In this document: positions 30,396-54,457 of the stretch, piece after piece
How positions within the stretch are numbered: position 1 is the first letter of the stretch
Layout: every line of letters begins with the position of its first letter
Source of the DNA: an uncultured Bdellovibrionales bacterium
GTDB lineage: Bacteria > Bdellovibrionota_C > UBA2361 > SZUA-149 > CAZDIO01
Reading direction: 5' to 3'
Assembly (NCBI GenBank): GCA_964505555.1
Contig: CAZDIO010000102.1
Coordinates: forward strand, 13,355-77,354
Length of the DNA stretch: 64,000 nucleotides
The notes under the pieces: generated by a model
What the model was told of the DNA's origin: nothing
Database searches by the model: none
The model's input: only the letters and a program-made list of their open reading frames with translations
Program-made: the position numbers and the translations under genes

Positions 30396-31259
30396 CTACT
30401 GCAGCAACGTCAACGCCAAGGCTGGCTGTTGATTTGCTTGTGCTAATACTGAAGCACTTGCTTGCTGGAGAATATTTAGTCGCGTAAGTTCCGCCGCTTC
30501 GAACGCTACGTCAACGTCACGGATTCGACTTTCTGCAGCGAGGAAGTTTTCTCGAGCCACTTGCAAGTTACTAATCGCCACATTCAGCCGACTCTCGGTA
30601 GAACCCAATGTTCCTCGAGACGCTGTCAAACTTCCGATGGCGAGGTTAATAGCATCAAGAGCTGATCGTGCAGAGATCTGAGATTCATTCGCCGTTGCCG
30701 CCAAGATCGAAAACAACGGTATAGAACTCCCCTCAACTGCCAACCCAATTGATGCCAAGGTAGCAGAAACTGCAGAGTAGGATACCTGTGAGGTAGTCTG
30801 CCCATCAAACCCTACCTGAAACACCGTCTGTGCTCCTCCAGAGAGAAGGTTTACACCGTTAAATTCAGTTGTTAAGGCGATTCGCTCAATTTCGCTTGAG
30901 AGCGCGAGAAACTCTAAATGCAACGCAGAACGTTGGGTGTTACTAAATACACCGTTGGCTGATTGTTCAGCAAGCTCTGCAAGCCTTGTTAATACGTTTC
31001 CGATCTGCTCCATCGCACCGTCAGTAATGGAGATCATCGAAACACCATCGCTTGCGTTTCGTATGGCGACAGTAGCTACTCGAGAATCTGAACGCAGCTG
31101 ATCGGCGATCGCAAGTCCAGCAGCATCGTCTGATGCTTTGGTAATTCGCAAACCGGACGACAACCGCTCATAGGCTTTCTGTAAACGATCCGTTGTTGAA
31201 CTTAAGTTTCTCTGCGCAGTAAGCGAGGAAACGTTAGTCCGTATATTAATTGTACCCAT
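30396..31259 (-). CDS. fliC: Flagellin (short form, no hypervariable domain)
   Basis: N-terminal INIRTNVSSLTAQRNL...RLSSGLRITKASDDAAGLAIA and C-terminal LTRLNILQQASASVLAQANQQPALALTLLQ. SD aaggaggg. Confidence 0.9.
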   Translation of the reverse strand: MGTINIRTNVSSLTAQRNLSSTTDRLQKAYERLSSGLRITKASDDAAGLAIADQLRSDSRVATVAIRNASDGVSMISITDGAMEQIGNVLTRLAELAEQSANGVFSNTQRSALHLEFLALSSEIERIALTTEFNGVNLLSGGAQTVFQVGFDGQTTSQVSYSAVSATLASIGLAVEGSSIPLFSILAATANESQISARSALDAINLAIGSLTASRGTLGSTESRLNVAISNLQVARENFLAAESRIRDVDVAFEAAELTRLNILQQASASVLAQANQQPALALTLLQ

Positions 31260-31485: not shown

Positions 31486-32490
31486 TTAGGCGATATTTTG
31501 AAATGGAGTTTCCCGTTTGAGTGCGGCTCGAAGTTCTGCAACACGCGTCACATAAGCCCGAGTACTCGCGGGTAAGTGCGGTTCGATGCTTTCAAAGTTT
31601 GTCGGATCTTTTCCTAAACGAAGTGCCTTCGCTTGTGCTTTTGCAACATTTCCTTCACCTGCGTTAAAGGCAGCGATGGCAAGTTTTTCCAAATCGTCGG
31701 CACTTTTAGCCGGCACGGTTTTTAATCCCGGTCTTAAAAATGTTTCTCGACTAAAAATGTCGTGGAGTTTTCGTAAATACCCCACTCCTAAGTGTGCATT
31801 GAGTCGGGGATCAAAGGGATCATAACCTGCAGGCATTTTGTAACGAACAAGCATCTCACTTGCGGTTTGATCCAGAAGCTGAAATAGCCCCTTTGTTTCA
31901 TGACCATCTTTACTCACCACATGTGGCCTCAGTGATGACTCTGCTTTCGCAACCGCAATACTTAGCTCAGGATCTACACCATGGTACTTCCCTGCTGTCT
32001 TAATAATCTCCTTTATATCCTGACGAGAGTAATCGCTATAAGGCTTAATACTTGCTCGATCTGGGTACACCCTCTTAGCGCTTACAAAAAGTGGGGTGAT
32101 CGGCTTTTCTACTTTTTCTACCGCTGATATTTTTTTGACACTCTCGCTCACCGGATTGACACGGAGCGAGGCATGAATAACCCCACTACTTCCACTTCCA
32201 GAAACTGCAGTAGCGTTCTTTATTAAGGGAGGAAGGTCTGCTTCAAGCATACCGTGCTCTTTGGTGTTAAGATTAGAAACTATCTCACCTGAAGGATTTA
32301 TGGAGGGTGTAGCTTGCTTTAAGTCTTCAGAAGGAGTTGATTTTGCAGCACGCTTTTCAATATCTGAAAGGAGCTCAGAGAAATCCTTCTGATTTGAGCC
32401 ATGGGTGGCCGTATCATTACCGGAGCGACCCCTTGGGGAGTCGATCCTGTTTTGATTTTTCTCGTAGCCTACATTAAATATCGTTGTCAT
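31486..32490 (-). CDS. Lytic transglycosylase (SLT domain) with a long low-complexity N-terminal region
   Basis: C-terminal SLT catalytic block AVAKAESSLRPHVVSKDGHETKGLFQLLD, plus AAFNAGEGNV. The N-terminal ~150 aa are hydrophilic and unassigned. Confidence 0.8.
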   Translation of the reverse strand: MTTIFNVGYEKNQNRIDSPRGRSGNDTATHGSNQKDFSELLSDIEKRAAKSTPSEDLKQATPSINPSGEIVSNLNTKEHGMLEADLPPLIKNATAVSGSGSSGVIHASLRVNPVSESVKKISAVEKVEKPITPLFVSAKRVYPDRASIKPYSDYSRQDIKEIIKTAGKYHGVDPELSIAVAKAESSLRPHVVSKDGHETKGLFQLLDQTASEMLVRYKMPAGYDPFDPRLNAHLGVGYLRKLHDIFSRETFLRPGLKTVPAKSADDLEKLAIAAFNAGEGNVAKAQAKALRLGKDPTNFESIEPHLPASTRAYVTRVAELRAALKRETPFQNIA

Positions 32491-33063: not shown

Positions 33064-33126
33064 TTGAACACAGAGTTTCACAGGGTTACACAGAGTAAAG
33101 ATTTTAAAATTCAACTCTGTGTTCAA
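33064..33126. repeat. A-type palindromic element, copy A1 (right arm truncated)
   Basis: Full left arm ttgaacacagagtttcacagggttacacagagt; the right arm is reduced to ctctgtgttcaa. It lies between convergent genes. Confidence 0.85.
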
Positions 33127-36657: not shown

Positions 36658-38235
36658 CTAAACGCTACGATTCCTTTCTCGTTTTCTTTTCCAAGTTTCA
36701 AAGTCTACTACCGCAATTTTTTTTGCAAGCTCCTCACGAACACATCCTTCAACCGCTTCATGAAGACTTCTTCGATCAAGAGCGGTTTTTAAGCAGTTCA
36801 TCTTCTTTTCAACCTGATCATAGAGGTTTGAAAGAGACTCAGAAGAGAGTGTTTTTCGATAGCGATCGACTTCGGTAGAGAGGTATTCCTGATACTCTTT
36901 TTTCTCAACTGGATTGGCCTCTCCCCGCCCGCTAGAGATTGGGGCTTTTGGAAAGTCCCGCCCAGTATTTTTAAGGATTTTCTCTTCAAAACTCCGGGGA
37001 ATAATGAATTTATGTGGAGTTTCTACTGCCCGATAGAGAAAACCTACCCGATTTTTTGAGACTTTCGTATCATTTGTTTGCACAAGAAAATCGTAATAGG
37101 AGATGATTTTATCAACTTGTAAAAGTTCTGCGGCGTTTTTTTCACTGAGCAGCCGTTTTGCTTGCGAGAGATGAATGCCTCGCGAAAGCAGAGCTTCAAT
37201 GGCTCCTTGTCGTTGTGATTCTAGATCAGTAGAACTGCGTTGGGAGGAATCTTTTTGAAAAACAGGGGGCGAAGAAAGGATAAAGCTTCCTTGCTGCGTG
37301 TGATTTCTAGGAAGAGGGCTCTCTGTTTGCTGGAGATGTTTTTGAGATACGATCTCTTTTCCGGAATGAAAGCGCACAACGGTCTCTACGCCCCTACCTG
37401 CAAACTCATAACTTGAGAGAAACCCAAGCGCTTTTAACTCCTCGCACGCTGGTTCAATTTGTTGCTTAATCTGGGAGATGTATTGATAACTTCGAGAAAG
37501 TCCTAACTTCTCAAAGGCAAAGGTAACAAGTGGTTTTTCAATACTTGATTTGTAGTAAAAATGCTTATCAAGATACCGGTAGAGCCTTCGACTTACAGCA
37601 CTTCGAAGTGAGAAATAAAGGGTTAAATCAAGCTTTTTTATAAACCCTGATTTAAAAGAATGAAAAAGTGCCTCACTCCAAATAAAATAACTCTTTGAAG
37701 CCTCAGCCCCAGAGAGGGCTTTGTTCCCTCGCCCATCGTTTATTTCGTAGGCATCGATAATTCCGAAATTTCTTGTTTGATAGGCTTTTGAAGCATTATC
37801 AAAAAACGCATTTGCTGCCCGAATTCGAACCCCGCTTAAGCGATCAAGTGATTTTGTAAGGCGGGAGTAGCTTCGCCCTTCTGTGGTCCAGCGTAAGATT
37901 CCTAAAAGCTCATACCGGGTAAAATATACCTTTCGGTTTCGAAACCCTTGATCCATCGTTAACCGCATCAAGCCAAGAAGGACATCATCATCCGTAGCGG
38001 TGGGGAGTCCAAACTTGTCTGCCCCGGTAATAATCCACTGGCGTTCAATCACCTCCCCACTGGGGAGCCGTTGGTTGTCACGAAACTCAAGGGTTTTTAC
38101 CTTTGAGTTTGTGCGTGTCGAGAGAACCGCGAGGGGAAACTCTGCAAGGTTCATCTCATCACGTGAGGTAAGCACTACCTCGGATGAGGAGACTTCACGA
38201 TCTTCGGCTCTTTGTTGGTAGAGGGTTTGCTGCAT
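36658..38235 (-). CDS. Replication initiator protein A-like (plasmid-type RepA)
   Basis: The N-terminal region EMNLAEFPLAVLSTR...WIITGADKFGLPTATDDDVLLGLMRL matches my recollection of the 'replication initiator protein A' family. It is divergent from parAB across a 0.9-kb non-coding region. Confidence 0.6.
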   Translation of the reverse strand: MQQTLYQQRAEDREVSSSEVVLTSRDEMNLAEFPLAVLSTRTNSKVKTLEFRDNQRLPSGEVIERQWIITGADKFGLPTATDDDVLLGLMRLTMDQGFRNRKVYFTRYELLGILRWTTEGRSYSRLTKSLDRLSGVRIRAANAFFDNASKAYQTRNFGIIDAYEINDGRGNKALSGAEASKSYFIWSEALFHSFKSGFIKKLDLTLYFSLRSAVSRRLYRYLDKHFYYKSSIEKPLVTFAFEKLGLSRSYQYISQIKQQIEPACEELKALGFLSSYEFAGRGVETVVRFHSGKEIVSQKHLQQTESPLPRNHTQQGSFILSSPPVFQKDSSQRSSTDLESQRQGAIEALLSRGIHLSQAKRLLSEKNAAELLQVDKIISYYDFLVQTNDTKVSKNRVGFLYRAVETPHKFIIPRSFEEKILKNTGRDFPKAPISSGRGEANPVEKKEYQEYLSTEVDRYRKTLSSESLSNLYDQVEKKMNCLKTALDRRSLHEAVEGCVREELAKKIAVVDFETWKRKRERNRSV

Positions 38236-39136
38236 GAAAAAAAATGAAACAAAAAAATTTTAAATTAACTTCAAGTCGTTTGTTATTTTGGTACAACGTA
38301 CATCATAGTTCTTCAACAAGAAGTTTTTTTATAAGTACGTACGTTAGGAGAGAAATTATTCAATCTTTCTAGTAAGTTAAGCCAGAAAATTTCTTTCGAT
38401 TCCCGAATCTTTTGGGCTCAGATCACGATGGACTTGAAGTCAATTCACTTGAGCACTTATCTCATTTCATGAGATTTTTATTCTCCTGCCTAACTTTCTT
38501 ACTTCGACTCTCGACATTGTGAAACCAAAAGCGCGAGATTTTTATGTAAGGCTCTCTGGAGCCTCTAACATGAGTCAGATAGCCAAACATTCCGGAGAAA
38601 ACGGTAGGTGGTCACGGTCATTAAGTTAGTTCCTGTCCATAAAAGCCAATTTTGAGTCCAAGGTCGATTGAACGGCCACTACTTCTAAACTTACTCTGTG
38701 GTTTTATAAAATCTTCTTTCAGACCCTTAATGACCGTGGGTAAGAAACTCTATTTTAGTAAAGTCTCTTAGTTCATTACTCGAACCCTTATTTCAATACA
38801 CGCCTATTTGACCATTTTTGGTTATTCCATTTCACGAACAGCAGCCAAACAAAAACCACAAGATATTCTAACATATTGAAATTATTAATATAATCAGATA
38901 TTCGTGGTTTAATTGACCTCCAAAGATCGCATTATTCTGGGAATGTTCGAGCTTCGAAATAAGTACTGATCACGTTTATAAGCGAGCTTTTGAAAGATGA
39001 TTATTTCAAAGCACGCTACTTTTTGGCCACTAGGTAGGTTTCTTTACTGTTTGGAAGCTTTAGTTTAAACCAGTTATTGTTTAATTTAACCTCTGCCAAA
39101 ATCTCAACTCTTGAGTAACGAAGCTGTAAGGTGGCC
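38236..39136. other. Candidate replication-origin / partition-site region (non-coding)
   Basis: This is the longest ORF-free stretch in the window. It is visibly AT-rich (A/T runs at 38236-38275 and 38870-38905) and has short palindromes at 38459-38475 (atctcatttcatgagat) and 38549-38564 (aggctctctggagcct). The RepA-like gene and parA flank it. I could not define clean iterons, DnaA boxes or a full parS by eye. Confidence 0.35.
38613..38738. repeat. B-type element, decayed copy (B2)
   Basis: Outer inverted repeat cacggtcattaag / cttaatgaccgtg. The right half, ctctgtggttttataaaatcttctttcagacccttaatgaccgtg, parallels B1 and B3; the left core is eroded. Confidence 0.6.
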
Positions 39137-39913
39137 ATGGCAAAAGTCTTTGCAATAGTGAATCAAAAGGGGGGAGTTGGAAAAACTACCACCGCTGCAA
39201 ATTTGGCCGCCGCGCTATCTGAGCGAGGTCAAAAAGTGCTTGTTATTGATCTTGATGCTCAAGCAAATCTCTCTGCTCATTTTGGAAGTTCCGTAGATGA
39301 TCAGAGTGAGCAGCTTACAATGTATGATGTGCTCAGGCACAACGCCCCGATTGAAAAAGCAATAATAAACCTCTCTTCGAACTTAAGTATCGTTCCTGCA
39401 AGCCTCCTACTAAGTGCTGCAGATTTAGAGCTTGGTGGTGTTATCGGTCGTGAGTTACTTCTTAAAAAAGCTCTTCAACCGGTAATTGATGACTATGATT
39501 ACACGATCATTGATTGCCCACCCTCACTGGGGATGCTCTCCCTCAATGGGCTTGTTGCTGCTTCACGAGTTATCGTTCCTGTTCAAAGTGAGTTTTTAGC
39601 CCTTCACGGCGTAAGGCAGCTTCTTGATACGATTGACCAGGTACGAAGTGCCTACAACCCCTTACTTGCTGTGGGTGGAGTTCTTCTCTGTCTTCATGAT
39701 TCAAGAAGGAGACTGGCGCGGAGTGTTGCCGATACGGTGCGCGAATATTTTGGAGATCTTGTTTTTGAAACTGTCATTCGCACAAACGTTGCCCTTGCTG
39801 AAGCACCTGCCCAGGGGGACTCAATTTTTCAATACGACCGCCGCTCAAGCGGTGCTGAAGATTATGCTAGCCTTGCAGAGGAGATACTAAGCCGTGGCAA
39901 AAAAGAAGGTTAA
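39137..39913 (+). CDS. parA: ParA/Soj-type partition ATPase
   Basis: Deviant Walker A NQKGGVGKTTTA; size and colinearity are those of chromosomal Soj. I prefer ATG 39137 (MAKVFAIVNQKGG) to the track's GTG 39131. Confidence 0.9.
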   Translation: MAKVFAIVNQKGGVGKTTTAANLAAALSERGQKVLVIDLDAQANLSAHFGSSVDDQSEQLTMYDVLRHNAPIEKAIINLSSNLSIVPASLLLSAADLELGGVIGRELLLKKALQPVIDDYDYTIIDCPPSLGMLSLNGLVAASRVIVPVQSEFLALHGVRQLLDTIDQVRSAYNPLLAVGGVLLCLHDSRRRLARSVADTVREYFGDLVFETVIRTNVALAEAPAQGDSIFQYDRRSSGAEDYASLAEEILSRGKKEG

Positions 39914-40814
39914 ATTCAGTGTAAACCCACTTCTTGGGGGACCAAGTCTTGCATCACGAGCAAAGATGGGGAGCCCTTATCGGGAGCTTTTAATCGACGA
40001 GATCGATTTTGATCCTGATCAACCGCGACGAGTATTTAATGAAGAGCGACTTCAAGAGCTCGCTGATTCAATTAAAGAACACGGAATCATCTCACCAATA
40101 CTTGTTAAAGTAACAGAAGGGGGAACCTATAAGCTTGTATCTGGAGAGAGAAGACTTCGTGCCTCAAAAATTGCTGGATTAGAATCGATCCCCGCAGTTA
40201 TTGAAGACGATGATAAAAGTAGTGATGTAACCCTTCCTAAGCAGCTTGTAGAAAATCTCCAACGAGAAGATCTCACCGTAATGGAGAGGGCGATCGCTAT
40301 TGGCCAACTACGAGATGCTTACAAATTGAGCATTCGTGAGATCTCCTCAAAGCTTTCCATTTCAAAAGGACTCGTTCAGAGAAGCCTTGAAGTTCTCGAT
40401 CTCCCAGACGATCTTCAAGCAGCGTTAATAAACGGTGCCTCAGAGACGAAGATTCTCGTTTTAGCGAAAGTTTCGAATCGTGAATTGAGAAAAGAATTTA
40501 TCGCTCAACTTGATAATTTCACCCGAGCACAACTTGAAGAAGAGGTAGATCGGGTTACGACACTCTTAAATGGCGACAAAGAAGAGGTGTACCACGGTGG
40601 TACACCTCGTAGTCGAAAAAATGGAAGAAATAAACTTTCCCCTCAAGATGAGCAGTTAATTAATGATTTAAAAAACAAACTAGGAACAAGAGTTTCTTTA
40701 ATGCGCAGTCGTGGCAAAGAGGGGCAGGGGAAGCTGATGATCGAGTTCTATTCAGATAACGATCTAAGCGAGATCTTTCGACGACTTTGTCGAACCGCTA
40801 GCGATTCTCTTTAA
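39894..40814 (+). CDS. parB: ParB/Spo0J-type partition protein
   Basis: ParB-box blocks GIISPILV and VSGERRLRASKIAG, plus an HTH region. It overlaps parA by 20 nt. Confidence 0.9.
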   Translation: MAKKKVKFSVNPLLGGPSLASRAKMGSPYRELLIDEIDFDPDQPRRVFNEERLQELADSIKEHGIISPILVKVTEGGTYKLVSGERRLRASKIAGLESIPAVIEDDDKSSDVTLPKQLVENLQREDLTVMERAIAIGQLRDAYKLSIREISSKLSISKGLVQRSLEVLDLPDDLQAALINGASETKILVLAKVSNRELRKEFIAQLDNFTRAQLEEEVDRVTTLLNGDKEEVYHGGTPRSRKNGRNKLSPQDEQLINDLKNKLGTRVSLMRSRGKEGQGKLMIEFYSDNDLSEIFRRLCRTASDSL

Positions 40815-43781: not shown

Positions 43782-43869
43782 TGAACACAGAGTTTCACAG
43801 AGATCCACAGAGTAAAGAAAAAAGCTTTTAGATTTAACTCTGTGTAACCCTGTGAAACTCTGTGTTCAA
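43782..43869. repeat. A-type palindromic element, copy A2 (left arm diverged)
   Basis: tgaacacagagtttcacagagatccacagagt ... actctgtgtaaccctgtgaaactctgtgttcaa. Confidence 0.85.
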
Positions 43870-43929: not shown

Positions 43930-43956
43930 GGAACTTAAGCTTTAAATCATCGATAA
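43930..43956 (+). promoter_or_regulatory. Weak sigma-28-like promoter candidate upstream of the glycine-zipper gene
   Basis: GGAA-N15-ATCGATAA against the consensus TAAA-N15-GCCGATAA. A competing sigma-70-like TTGAAA-N17-ATATAA lies at 43894-43922. Both are weak. Confidence 0.2.
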
Positions 43957-44020
43957 AGATTATGAGGGCAATTCGTCTCTCATCACTATTACGAAATAGA
44001 CTTCAAATAGGGAGGCCATC

Positions 44021-45376
44021 ATGATCGTTACTGATTCACCATTTCGCACGCAATATAGCGCCAATAACGTTGCAATTCGAAACGGAGCAACAAGTACTAC
44101 GCCGGCGCAATTTAGTAATCTTTCTTTTCTTCGATCGACACCACCTTCTTTACCTTCAAGCAATCTCCTTGCCCCATCAAGTAGCGGAGGATTTGTTTCT
44201 CAAGTGCAGTCGATGCTGCAGCAAGTTTCGGTGCTGATGGATCTCATCGGTGCCGCAAGACAATCAGATCAAAGTGCTGGGGTTAGTCTCCTCGATGGGG
44301 CGAAACTCTTTTCTCAAAATGTTTCTCAGGAGCTTTTTAACCTTCAGACAAGAGGAGGTATCGGAGGGGTTTTTGATGCTGTTCCGACCTCTATAGATAG
44401 TCTTGGTACTGCCGCTCAACAGTACGTTCTTGGGAACCTCAAGCGAGAGTTTTTTGACGCAGTTGGTGAGGCGTTTGGGGTGGATGTTTCACAGCTTTCT
44501 GTAACAGATCTTGCCAATTTGGCTTATGAAAGCGTTTTTGGAGAGGGAACATCGCTCTCTAGTACCCTCTCAGATGGGGTGGCAGGAATCTTCTCCGGTC
44601 AGGATCCCTTTGTAGCAGGAGAACTTAGTGGAGAAATTGGTGGAGAAATAAGCACTGAAGTAGGCGGGGCAACTTCAGGAATTGGCCAATTTACAGGCGC
44701 TTTAGCAACCGCGTATTCTCTCTATGGAATAATTAATGACTGGGGAAAGAGCACCCCAGCCATGGGTGCGATGCGAGGTGCTACGGCTGGAGCGTACATC
44801 GGGAGTATTATTCCAGGAGTTGGAACTCTTATCGGAGGTGCCATCGGTGGGGTTGCGGGGGCGATCTCTGGATTGTTTCATAGTGGGAAGCATAAAAACC
44901 AGATTCAACGCGATCAGGTTCGAGAGTTTTTAAGAAATGCCCAAATTATCGATTCAGATAACTCCCTTCAGTTAGCAAATGGTGAACGTTTTGATATCGG
45001 AAAAGATGGAGGTGCTCGCTATCTTGGACTTGACGGAGTTGAGAGACGACCCTACGTGACTGACCCTTCAAATCCACTTACCGCTGAGGCGATAGGGCTT
45101 GTAAATCCGTTAGCAATAATTCTCACCGGAGGTGATCCTGGACTTTCTTCAGCTTTTGCAGGGTATTTTAGTAATGCCATCGTCAGTAACGCACAAGATC
45201 TCGAAGGCGTCCGCCAAAATGCCTTGGCGATATTCTCAAAATTTCAGGTTACCCCAGAGCAATTGATCGCTGGCTTAGAAAATCTTACTGCCTCCGGCAA
45301 AATCCCCCCAGAAGATTTTGCTGCATACGCAAACGGGGTAAGAACTCTCCTTGAAGGGTTTTCTTCACCTTCATAA
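44021..45376 (+). CDS. Glycine-zipper-containing protein of unknown function; candidate secreted pore-former/effector
   Basis: 451 aa. The N-terminus is Ser/Thr/Pro-rich with no hydrophobic signal (SPFRTQYSANNVAIRNGATSTTPAQFSNLSFLRSTPPSLPSS). The central segment GAMRGATAGAYIGSIIPGVGTLIGGAIGGVAGAISGLF is a GxxxG ladder. SD gggagg. Confidence 0.6.
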   Translation: MIVTDSPFRTQYSANNVAIRNGATSTTPAQFSNLSFLRSTPPSLPSSNLLAPSSSGGFVSQVQSMLQQVSVLMDLIGAARQSDQSAGVSLLDGAKLFSQNVSQELFNLQTRGGIGGVFDAVPTSIDSLGTAAQQYVLGNLKREFFDAVGEAFGVDVSQLSVTDLANLAYESVFGEGTSLSSTLSDGVAGIFSGQDPFVAGELSGEIGGEISTEVGGATSGIGQFTGALATAYSLYGIINDWGKSTPAMGAMRGATAGAYIGSIIPGVGTLIGGAIGGVAGAISGLFHSGKHKNQIQRDQVREFLRNAQIIDSDNSLQLANGERFDIGKDGGARYLGLDGVERRPYVTDPSNPLTAEAIGLVNPLAIILTGGDPGLSSAFAGYFSNAIVSNAQDLEGVRQNALAIFSKFQVTPEQLIAGLENLTASGKIPPEDFAAYANGVRTLLEGFSSPS

Positions 45377-45390
45377 GAAGCGTTAGATTA

Positions 45391-45479
45391 TTGAACACAG
45401 AGTTTCACAGGGTTACACAGAGTTTGAACTATCTTACTTATCCCACACTCTGTGTAACCCTGTGAAACTCTGTGTTCAA
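45391..45479. repeat. A-type palindromic element, copy A3 (loop inverted relative to A4)
   Basis: Perfect 33-bp arms with loop ttgaactatcttacttatcccac. It starts 15 nt after the upstream stop. Confidence 0.9.
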
Positions 45480-45546
45480 CCTTCCTTTTTTGCTCAAAAA
45501 GTTTAAAAACATCTTTACTGCTATATCGAATAGTGATATTAATCTA

Positions 45547-45708
45547 GTGGTGATTCGATCGTACAAAAACATTGGCACACGTGATATTGCTGAGAATTCG
45601 AAAGCAGCGCGGCGACTGTTGCCGCAACCATTTAATGCTCAGTATCGCATTTGCTTTCTTTGGAATGGCATTGATGCTGACGCAGTTGAAATAGTGGATT
45701 ATCACTGA
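45547..45708 (+). pseudogene. higB: HigB-like (RelE/ParE superfamily) toxin remnant with an apparent internal deletion
   Basis: The ends match HigB (VIRSYKNIGTRDIAENSKAA... and ...YRICFLWNGIDADAVEIVDYH), but only ~53 codons remain against roughly 90 in the family members I recall, so the central part is missing. The track's GTG start at 45472 lies inside repeat A3 and is unlikely to be real. Confidence 0.45.
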
Positions 45709-45732: not shown

Positions 45733-46026
45733 ATGTTGAAACCTAGGCGTGTTATAGCAGTGCATCCTGGAGAGATGCTTGAAGAGGTTCTTAAACAGAA
45801 CAAGATTAGCCAATCTTCCCTTGCCGCTCATCTCGGAGTTACTCAAGCAAAGATCAACGAAATCTGTCGTGGTAAGCGAGGAGTGACGCCAGATATGGCG
45901 ATGAAGTTCGGTAAAGCTTTTGGACAGAGCCCAATGTTTTGGATAAATATCCAAAAAAATTGGGAGATGAGCCAGCTCGATGAATCTGATTACAAAGACA
46001 TACAACGGATAAAATGTCGTGCGTAG
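45733..46026 (+). CDS. higA: HigA-family HTH antitoxin
   Basis: Colinear with HigA/VapI: HPGEMLEEVLKQNKISQSSLAAHLGVTQAKINEICRGKRGVTPDMAMKFGKAFGQSPMFWINIQ. Confidence 0.85.
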   Translation: MLKPRRVIAVHPGEMLEEVLKQNKISQSSLAAHLGVTQAKINEICRGKRGVTPDMAMKFGKAFGQSPMFWINIQKNWEMSQLDESDYKDIQRIKCRA

Positions 46027-46142: not shown

Positions 46143-46232
46143 TTGAACACAGAGTTTCACAGGGTTACACAGAGTGTGGGAATAATTAAGATAATTTAAA
46201 CTCTGTGTAACCCTGTGAAACTCTGTGTTCAA
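46143..46232. repeat. A-type palindromic element, copy A4
   Basis: Perfect 33-bp arms with loop gtgggaataattaagataatttaa, roughly the reverse complement of the A3 loop. It shares the flanks gatta... and ...ccttccYtttttgc with A3. Confidence 0.9.
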
Positions 46233-54379: not shown

Positions 54380-54457
54380 TGAACACAGAGTTCAACAGAG
54401 GAAAGAAAACAAACCAATAATTTTAACTCTGTGAAACCCTGTGAAACTCTGTGTTCA
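54380..54457. repeat. A-type palindromic element, copy A6 (left arm degenerate)
   Basis: tgaacacagagttcaacagagg ... ctctgtgaaaccctgtgaaactctgtgttca, between convergent genes. Confidence 0.8.

Follow-up and report, generated by a model that had tools for sequence, protein, structure and literature searches.

What does the gene at 44021-45376 of this DNA encode, and does its product serve the secretion operon that begins 1.1 kb downstream of it? The gene was analyzed within a stretch of 64,000 nucleotides (hereafter the window; GC content 43%) from an uncultured Bdellovibrionales bacterium. An original prediction had described the product as a glycine-zipper protein lacking a Sec signal and as a possible translocator or effector of the neighboring injectisome-like type III secretion system (T3SS) or, alternatively, as a contact-independent toxin. 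Based on all analyses, it was concluded that the gene is best described as a chromosomal, promoter-equipped form of a glycine-zipper, ejection-protein-like membrane inserter and is not a member of any translocator family. We tentatively favored the explanation that its product is a Sec-independent exported membrane-inserting protein of the late or attack phase, which is derived from or shared with phage ejectosomes.

The gene and the parts of its product were delineated as follows (aa, amino acids):

44021-45376, forward strand: coding sequence (451 aa); the product belongs to the chromosomal branch, type A, of an undescribed family of glycine-zipper proteins (open reading frame list, homologues).
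44010-44015, forward strand: ribosome-binding site GGGAGG, 5 nt before the ATG, read from the sequence.
44021-44185, forward strand: polar disordered N-terminus, aa 1-55, rich in S/T/P/N/Q and without a hydrophobic core (composition, hydropathy and the predicted local distance difference test score, pLDDT).
44186-44665, forward strand: helical N-domain, aa 56-215, found in the chromosomal branch only, with the motif QxxDxxxGxxLLxGA that includes G93 and A94 (alignments A1 and A5).
44696-44878, forward strand: AAYSLY helix and glycine-zipper helix-turn(PGVG)-helix hairpin, aa 226-286, predicted to insert into a membrane (alignment, hydropathy, Pfam).
44882-45355, forward strand: basic linker SGKHKNQIQRDQVREF and, after it, an alpha-helical C-domain that includes a small beta-hairpin and a single armadillo (ARM)-like repeat, aa 288-445.

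The open reading frame (ORF) was intact and started with ATG. The GC content at its third codon positions (GC3) was 0.35, like that of the adjacent genes, and the gene is native to the genome in composition.

The residues S, T, P, N and Q made up 56% of the N-terminal segment (aa 1-55), and four of its residues were charged. The Kyte-Doolittle(12) hydropathy reached a peak of 0.9 over the first 70 aa; therefore, a Sec-type hydrophobic core was absent. Both the missing Sec signal and the polar Ser/Thr/Pro/Asn-rich N-terminus, noted already in the original prediction, proved to be traits of the whole family. The hydrophobic core was lacking in 50 of 50 full-length chromosomal members (Kyte-Doolittle(12) peaks of 1.4 or lower), and the N-termini of these 50 proteins contained 16% S, 8.6% N, 8.5% P, 7.7% T, 7.5% Q and 1.6% D, being poor in D/E, with the composition kept and the sequence not. 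In the full-length AlphaFold2 (AF2) model, aa 1-55 had a pLDDT below 30. A leader that is rich in S/N/P/T/Q and poor in D/E would be compatible with a T3SS signal; the likeness to T3SS substrates claimed earlier held for the composition, which is all that it extends to. The following N-domain (aa 56-215) gave no Pfam match and no PDB match, and helices were predicted in it by AF2 with low confidence.

The GxxxG ladder GAMRGATAGAYIGSIIPGVGTLIGGAIGGVAGAISGLF spanned aa 249-286 (nt 44765-44878) and was the most hydrophobic region of the protein, with a Kyte-Doolittle(19) peak of 1.61 at aa 260. Seven of its glycines (G253, G257, G261, G268, G272, G276 and G280) were invariant among 52 homologues, in agreement with the earlier assignment of the ladder to the membrane-inserting kind. 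We infer that the hairpin inserts into a membrane. Pfam gave only sub-threshold zipper matches for the window protein, the strongest being Gly-zipper_Omp (PF13488) with an E-value of 3.4e-4 and 20.9 bits, which is under the gathering score of 25; the protein thus carries the zipper motif without formal membership in Gly-zipper_Omp. The Gly-zipper models of Pfam matched 42 of the 52 type A relatives at E<=0.1 (best E 1.2e-6), and beyond these models no Pfam domain was found in any of the 52 type A members. Single-sequence searches of NCBIfam and of PDB sequences with the window protein gave nothing significant, and the protein showed no homology to housekeeping envelope proteins.

In the linker after the hairpin, the residues K290, R297 and D298 were invariant within the aligned pattern GK-x-K-DQ-xx-RD-x-VR. 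When the full-length protein was modeled by AF2 with 5 sequences, the pLDDT was 46.7 and the result was unusable for the N-terminal half. A model of aa 215-451 with 35 sequences contained a C-domain of ~155 aa with a pLDDT >90 (predicted template modeling score, pTM, 0.73), consisting of a helix, a small beta-hairpin and five helices. A Foldseek search of the PDB with the C-domain produced no significant match (best E 1.3), and a fold search of BFVD returned a single uncultured phage protein at an E-value of 3e-3, which was not significant. The only echo of the domain at the sequence level was one armadillo-like repeat (designed ARM protein, E 3e-6). As modeled, the C-domain is a novel helical domain without a solved structural relative in the PDB.

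A word-indexed homology search returned only 5 relatives of 34-45% identity; the family became visible only by an exhaustive profile search. The profile of those 5 relatives was compared with 1.84 billion cluster representatives and retrieved 334 proteins at a threshold of E<=1e-30; the number rose to 976 and 2182 when the threshold was relaxed to E<=1e-10 and E<=1e-3, respectively (all counts being cluster representatives). Judged by these matches, it is a large undescribed family that is not covered by Pfam, NCBIfam or PHROGs.

Two architectures, type A and type B, were split in a neighbor-joining tree of the shared core, which comprises the zipper hairpin, the basic linker and the ~155-aa helical domain. 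One clade held 75 of the 81 type A proteins, including the window protein; the other was formed by type B and viral-contig proteins. Proteins of type A were ~400-520 aa long and contained the polar signal-less N-terminus, the helical N-domain (QxxDxxxGxxLLxGA), the zipper and, at the protein end, the C-domain. Type B proteins had a different N-terminus, which was often Q-rich or coiled, and their C-domain was followed by a P/Q-rich tail. Two longer relatives (655 and 737 aa) were encoded at 201-2168 of locus L014 and at 572-2785 of locus L015, both from Bdellovibrionales or unclassified metagenome-assembled genomes (MAGs). Their core was located near the N-terminus and was followed by a long P/Q-rich tail like that of the phage-type branch, and they may be prophage-borne or intermediate forms.

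Among the 185,579 species-representative genomes of GTDB that were scanned, 10 contained the family. All were MAGs, nine of them labeled Bdellovibrionota, Bdellovibrionales or Oligoflexia and one "bacterium". None of the family hits came from a named, cultured taxon, and the few organism names attached to them all belonged to MAGs. A scan of metagenome contigs added only short or phage-like contigs. In the chromosomal family, the gene was present as a single copy per genome. The chromosomal branch is a vertically conserved stand-alone gene in an uncultured, flagellated Bdellovibrionota lineage with a T3SS operon.

Relatives of type B were located by tblastn at 15 viral loci of IMG/VR (29-36% identity over 120-170 aa); the type B alignment (A2) was too divergent to seed the viral scan. 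At locus L021, the gene order was portal, an unknown, major head protein, several genes, tail protein and the homologue, after which came an unknown, an amidase-like protein, a virion structural protein, another unknown and a 701-aa protein. The latter carried a C-terminal soluble lytic transglycosylase (SLT) domain and matched the "internal virion protein with endolysin domain" of PHROGs. The gene order of L022, as annotated with PHROGs, was comparable. In two other type B proteins, P0269 and P0272, an N-terminal SLT lytic transglycosylase domain was found (PF01464, E ~3e-31). By gene context, the type B homologues are placed in the ejection (internal virion) protein position of T7-like podophages, and sequence comparison showed homology of the family core to proteins that uncultured podophages encode in their internal-virion block. 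The window protein itself matched PHROG profiles over aa 111-293, namely a tail-associated lysin (E 8e-8) and a tape measure protein (E 2e-7).

The homology to phage virion-module proteins, the tail-lysin and tape-measure matches and the flanking repeats with a decayed toxin-antitoxin pair could also be expected of a prophage remnant, that is, of a leftover ejection or tape-measure-like gene without a cellular function. However, the window gene was not part of a phage or prophage; it lay between hemB and the T3SS operon, and no phage genes adjoined it or any chromosomal orthologue. The intact ORF, the native GC3, the distinct clade with its own N-domain, the invariant residues and a promoter conserved across genomes of 40-56% GC all spoke against a remnant, which we consider extremely improbable.

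This promoter was recognized as a conserved motif, and by this measure the gene is predicted to have a sigma-28-like promoter of its own:

43932-43958, forward strand: sigma-28 (FliA)-like promoter motif, AACTT at 43932-43936, a 14-nt spacer and CGATAAAG at 43951-43958 (motif conservation).

In the window, the motif ended ~62 nt upstream of the ATG. The pattern G[GCA]AAACTT-N14-CGA[AT][AT] was observed 22-63 nt upstream of the orthologue start codon in 10 of 13 genomes (the window, L006, L007, L008, L009, L010, L012, L016, L017 and L038), and its 14-nt spacing was invariant across these 10 independent genomes, whereas chance would place its eight fixed bases about once per 65 kb per strand. 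When a weight matrix built from the family sites was used for scanning, no site in the 64-kb window other than the one before the zipper gene reached 15 bits. In 495 kb of loci, scores of 19 bits or more were confined to sites before family genes and before one other gene. That gene (L010, 1723-2607, reverse strand; site at 2723, 19.1 bits) encodes a 294-aa protein with an S/T/N/Q-rich signal-less N-terminus and no Pfam match, and the gene is a candidate for a second member of this regulon. The flagellar FliA and the FliA-like sigma factor of the T3SS operon are both candidate readers of the motif.

The E. coli sigma-28 promoter TAAAGTTT-N11-GCCGATAA puts AAGTT 14 nt before CGATAA. The window motif had the same geometry, with C instead of G in the -35 core. 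In Bdellovibrio bacteriovorus, the FliA consensus of the attack phase is TTAAG-N16-CCGATA, and the FliA-type motif drives two thirds of the attack-phase promoters, many of them of non-flagellar genes (PMC3627812). The window promoter resembled this regulon in its sigma-28 layout, with a -10 CGATAA located 14 nt after an AAxTT -35 core, and differed from it in the -35 sequence AACTT, which is neither AAGTT nor TTAAG.

We proposed that the protein would be a late product of the motile or attack-phase regulon and that its disordered polar N-terminus would direct it out of the cytoplasm independently of Sec. Export could proceed through either type of T3SS, injectisome-like or flagellar, or by a different route. 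The zipper hairpin, probably in oligomeric form, would enter a membrane and thereby breach or bridge an envelope, and the phage relatives are thought to do likewise when ejected into the host. A more specific version was regarded as quite unlikely. It states that the lineage, which is probably predatory, took over a phage ejectosome module, added a T3SS-type leader, the N-domain and a FliA-like attack-phase promoter, and uses an injectisome-like or flagellar T3SS to export the product, which would perforate the envelope of the bacteria preyed upon. Such a protein would be a "translocator" for bacterial prey, of phage origin and unrelated to SctE/SctB.

The distance of 1.1 kb between the gene and the adjacent T3SS operon was confirmed, the operon extending from 46483 to 53146. 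It encodes a FliA/WhiG-family sigma factor (TIGR02479, 83.8 bits), SctJ, two unknowns, an SctQ/FliN-like protein, two small proteins, SctV and a tetratricopeptide repeat (TPR) protein (52529-53146) with a faint LcrH/SycD match (E 0.006). The SctJ is a lipoprotein and the two small proteins are ~100 aa each. No SctN, SctC or SctRSTU genes were present inside the operon. The nearest SctV relatives shared 45-57% identity, and the few named ones belonged to Bdellovibrionota, Oligoflexia or "Deltaproteobacteria" MAGs. A chlamydial source of the DNA, which the gene order had suggested, was rejected, since Bdellovibrionota/Oligoflexia MAGs account for the nearest named SctV relatives as well as for all hits to the zipper family. 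The same operon was observed in L035, L036, L037, L040 and L041 from Bdellovibrionota/Oligoflexia MAGs, in the order sigma, SctJ, x, x, SctQ, x, x, SctV, TPR and usually a family 2 glycosyltransferase (GT2).

The translocator or effector suggested in the original prediction would be a hydrophobic protein of the SctE/SctB kind or an effector of this T3SS, with the TPR protein as its class II chaperone and transcription possibly by the operon sigma factor. Several features are in its favor: the size, the signal-less polar N-terminus, the helical N-domain, the central two-helix hairpin and the helical C-domain resemble the translocator architecture; the operon supplies a FliA/WhiG-family sigma factor and a TPR protein with a chaperone-like match, and the gene carries a sigma-28-like promoter. 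In addition, neither the family nor this type of T3SS turned up in a named, cultured taxon, the named hits all being MAGs, and the family and the same T3SS operon co-occurred in both assemblies checked. In GCA_046328905.1 the zipper homologue was on contig 2 and the operon on contig 1, and in GCA_035327825.1 they were on contigs 9 and 18, respectively. Two further SctV look-ups fell in unrelated assemblies, so that the co-occurrence sample is n=2.

However, no Pfam or NCBIfam translocator family (SseC/YopD/IpaB/SseD models) was detected in the window protein or its 52 relatives, the sole match being translocon_SseD at E 8.1. The T3SS proteins of the window had no match within ~10 kb of any chromosomal homologue in ~14 other contexts, where the surrounding genes were unrelated housekeeping genes. 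Conversely, the zipper gene was missing from L037, which has the closest syntenic T3SS operon: different genes preceded the sigma factor there, although L037 shares the downstream genes of the window (GT2, a PIG-V-like mannosyltransferase, an Rce1-like protease, glucosamine-6-P isomerase and a 2-hydroxyacid dehydrogenase). The zipper gene was never next to a TPR gene in any context; in the window it is 7 kb from the TPR gene of the operon, and two repetitive extragenic palindromic (REP) elements and a toxin-antitoxin remnant lie between it and the operon. The promoter motif was absent from the T3SS loci, and the phage relatives show that the core works without a T3SS. A PxLxxP chaperone-binding motif was also sought. 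The prolines P28 and P45, which were "nearly invariant" in alignment A5, turned out to be MAFFT artefacts in low-complexity sequence, and the motif was rejected. The adjacency of gene and operon is peculiar to the window and not conserved, and we infer that the 1.1-kb proximity is incidental. By synteny the gene is not tied to the T3SS; by co-occurrence it possibly is. A translocator or effector of the adjacent T3SS was considered unlikely.

The main alternative leaves the protein in the cell that makes it. Here, the hairpin would anchor a resident inner-membrane protein with both termini inside (N-in/C-in), the soluble domains would be cytoplasmic, regulated proteolysis would occur at the phase change, and the protein, instead of being secreted, would have a structural or regulatory function in the motile or attack-phase cell. 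The evidence for this came first from the hairpin itself, the ends of which were both flanked by K/R residues in both family branches (WGK...R before it and SGKHKNQIQRDQVR after it, with K290 and R297 invariant). The second line was the C-terminus. A terminal -AA is a hallmark of ClpXP-type C-degrons. This ending was found in 22 of 86 complete type A proteins (26% of the orthologues; e.g. P0002 and P0128) and in 61 of 120 SctV homologues (51%; P0009-P0127), including the window SctV at 50429-52507 (...SQKIAA), compared with 6 of 245 other ORFs of the window and fetched loci (~2-4% of other ORFs). The -AA endings suggest that the C-terminus is exposed in the producer's cytoplasm at some stage and may represent a shared ClpXP/ssrA-like degron on attack-phase or T3SS proteins of the lineage; for a resident protein, they would point to a C-terminus that is cytoplasmic and protease-accessible. 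Moreover, a hairpin anchor needs no Sec signal, and the gene is a single-copy one among housekeeping genes, with no secretion or chaperone partner. On the other hand, the same basic flanks were present in the phage branch, and the proteins of that branch have to enter the membrane from the outside of a cell. A resident protein offers no explanation for the polar disordered leader of 40-60 aa, the composition of which was kept in 50 of 50 members. The window copy lacks the -AA ending, and the hydrophobicity of the zipper (Kyte-Doolittle 1.6) is borderline for a stable transmembrane hairpin. A resident inner-membrane protein was judged possible, if somewhat doubtful.

Several of these observations weigh against export of the protein as an ejectosome-like membrane inserter, and they are joined by others. 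The basic flanks together with the -AA endings fit a protein anchored in the producer's inner membrane with cytoplasmic domains. In an all-against-all BLASTP comparison of the neighbors in 13 loci, no shared neighbor was found, and no chaperone, secretion gene or conserved neighbor was located beside the gene in any context. The co-occurrence with the T3SS operon covers two assemblies. The promoter motif was found neither before the T3SS operons of the window and the loci nor upstream of the window flagellin gene, and its -35 core (AACTT) has a C where the sigma-28 consensus has a G. The phage role was deduced from the gene position in uncultured contigs, tblastn searches of GenBank isolated phages with the window core, a viral-contig homologue and P0239 did not find the domain, and no PHROG covers the family C-domain. 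We nevertheless retained the Sec-independent exported membrane inserter as the tentatively favored explanation.

In several membrane-depolarising toxins, the active element is a glycine-zipper segment. A pore-forming toxin or bacteriocin was also considered, either contact-independent, as suggested originally, or delivered by a type VI or type I secretion system (T6SS or T1SS), with an immunity protein. A faint Microcin V match (E 0.04) in 1 of 52 members and the toxin-antitoxin remnant and REP elements adjoining the window copy would be in line with this. However, no conserved adjacent small gene was present in 13 contexts, which leaves no immunity candidate, and no T6SS, T1SS or Rhs genes were found nearby. 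A single-copy gene with native composition and a conserved promoter is also unlike the patchy, polymorphic loci of toxins. The search for an adjacent immunity gene in relatives thus weakened the toxin alternative, which we regard as highly unlikely. The toxin-immunity module and the prophage remnant are both unlikely explanations.

The attack mechanism of non-classical Bdellovibrionota and the purpose of their injectisome-like T3SS are largely unknown, and the family is linked to podophage ejection proteins, the least understood proteins of those phages. If exported, the protein would be a concrete candidate for an envelope-breaching factor common to phages and predatory bacteria. As a resident membrane protein, it would be an ordinary conserved hypothetical one and its adjacency to the T3SS a coincidence. 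The conserved sigma-28-like promoter offers a means of locating the remaining genes of the regulon.

Two features in the surroundings of the gene were also described in the original prediction as palindromes bracketing it:

43782-43869, no strand assigned: REP-like palindromic element upstream of the gene (dispersed repeat).
45391-45479, no strand assigned: REP-like palindromic element directly after the stop codon (dispersed repeat).

The palindromes do bracket the gene, ~90 nt each, but they are not specific to it and belong to a dispersed REP-like element, a third copy of which lies at 46143-46232. The arms of this REP or miniature inverted-repeat transposable element (MITE)-like unit were ~33-36 nt long (AACACAGAGTTTCACAGGGTTACACAGAGT) and 17-24 nt apart. 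Ten arms were found at 6 intergenic sites (33067-33096, 43782-43869, 45391-45479, 46143-46232, 53187-53269 and 54426-54455), where none were expected by chance. The element may act as a terminator or insulator; the copy at 45391-45479 is a possible transcription stop that separates the gene from the downstream DNA.

Between the gene and the operon, two ORFs were located on the forward strand (45472-45708 and 45733-46026). The decayed higBA pair proposed for this interval was recovered in part: the HigA-like HTH_3 antitoxin was intact (E 7e-9), while the HigB remnant was weak. The upstream 78-aa ORF had no Pfam match and only a weak HigB-like C-terminus (...YRICFLW...VEIVDYH; 6f8s_B, E 0.098), and a REP element appears to have replaced the N-terminal part of the HigB-like ORF. 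Elsewhere in the window, a flagellin gene was found at 30396-31259 on the reverse strand (Flagellin_N and Flagellin_C), adjoining a gene for an SLT-domain protein (31486-32490, reverse strand); the organism therefore possesses a flagellum in addition to its injectisome-like operon. An RPA/TrfA-like replication initiator gene (36658-38235, reverse strand) was located beside parA and parB (39131-39913 and 39894-40814, both forward strand), amid housekeeping genes (isocitrate dehydrogenase, hemD and hemB). These replication and partition genes could mark a chromid as a secondary replicon, an integrated plasmid or an origin region.

The protein was compared with four known systems. It resembles the T3SS translocators (SctE/SctB: YopB/YopD, IpaB/IpaC and CopB/CopD) in size and in being polar at the N-terminus without a Sec signal; in both, a helical region precedes a hydrophobic hairpin of helices, and the C-terminal part is again helical. 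Moreover, in the window a T3SS operon with a TPR gene is nearby. It differs from them in that no homology was detected, the gene is not beside a class II chaperone, the linkage to the T3SS is not conserved and the hairpin is a glycine zipper of borderline hydrophobicity. The Pfam zipper families (PF13488, YMGG PF13441, OmpA-type PF13436; SlyB/PCP-type lipoproteins) are similar in the G-x3-G ladder, which they match in 42 of 52 members, and a Legionella OmpA-family zipper (6x65_N) was the best PDB sequence match to the zipper segment. However, those proteins are short Sec/Lol-exported lipoproteins or OmpA fusions, whereas the window protein has no signal peptide or lipobox, extends for ~400 residues outside the zipper and scored 20.9 against the threshold of 25.

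With the phage tape measure and tail-associated lysin profiles (phrog_167 and phrog_1047), weak similarity was observed over aa 111-293 (E 2e-7 to 8e-8), both sides having Gly/Ala-rich helical and zipper segments and SLT domains occurring among the relatives. This similarity was confined to the low-complexity and zipper region, the C-domain is missing from PHROGs, and the window protein is about one third of their length. The podophage ejection proteins of the T7 gp14-gp15-gp16 type correspond in gene position, since distant members of the family follow the tail proteins and precede, or stand among, an SLT-bearing internal virion protein. Some family members are SLT fusions, and T7 gp16 carries an SLT domain as well. 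Both groups are further alike in predicted membrane-inserting helices and as proteins that must cross a narrow channel unfolded. Unlike the ejection proteins, the window gene is chromosomal, encodes an extra N-domain, has its own sigma-28-like promoter and is without phage neighbors.

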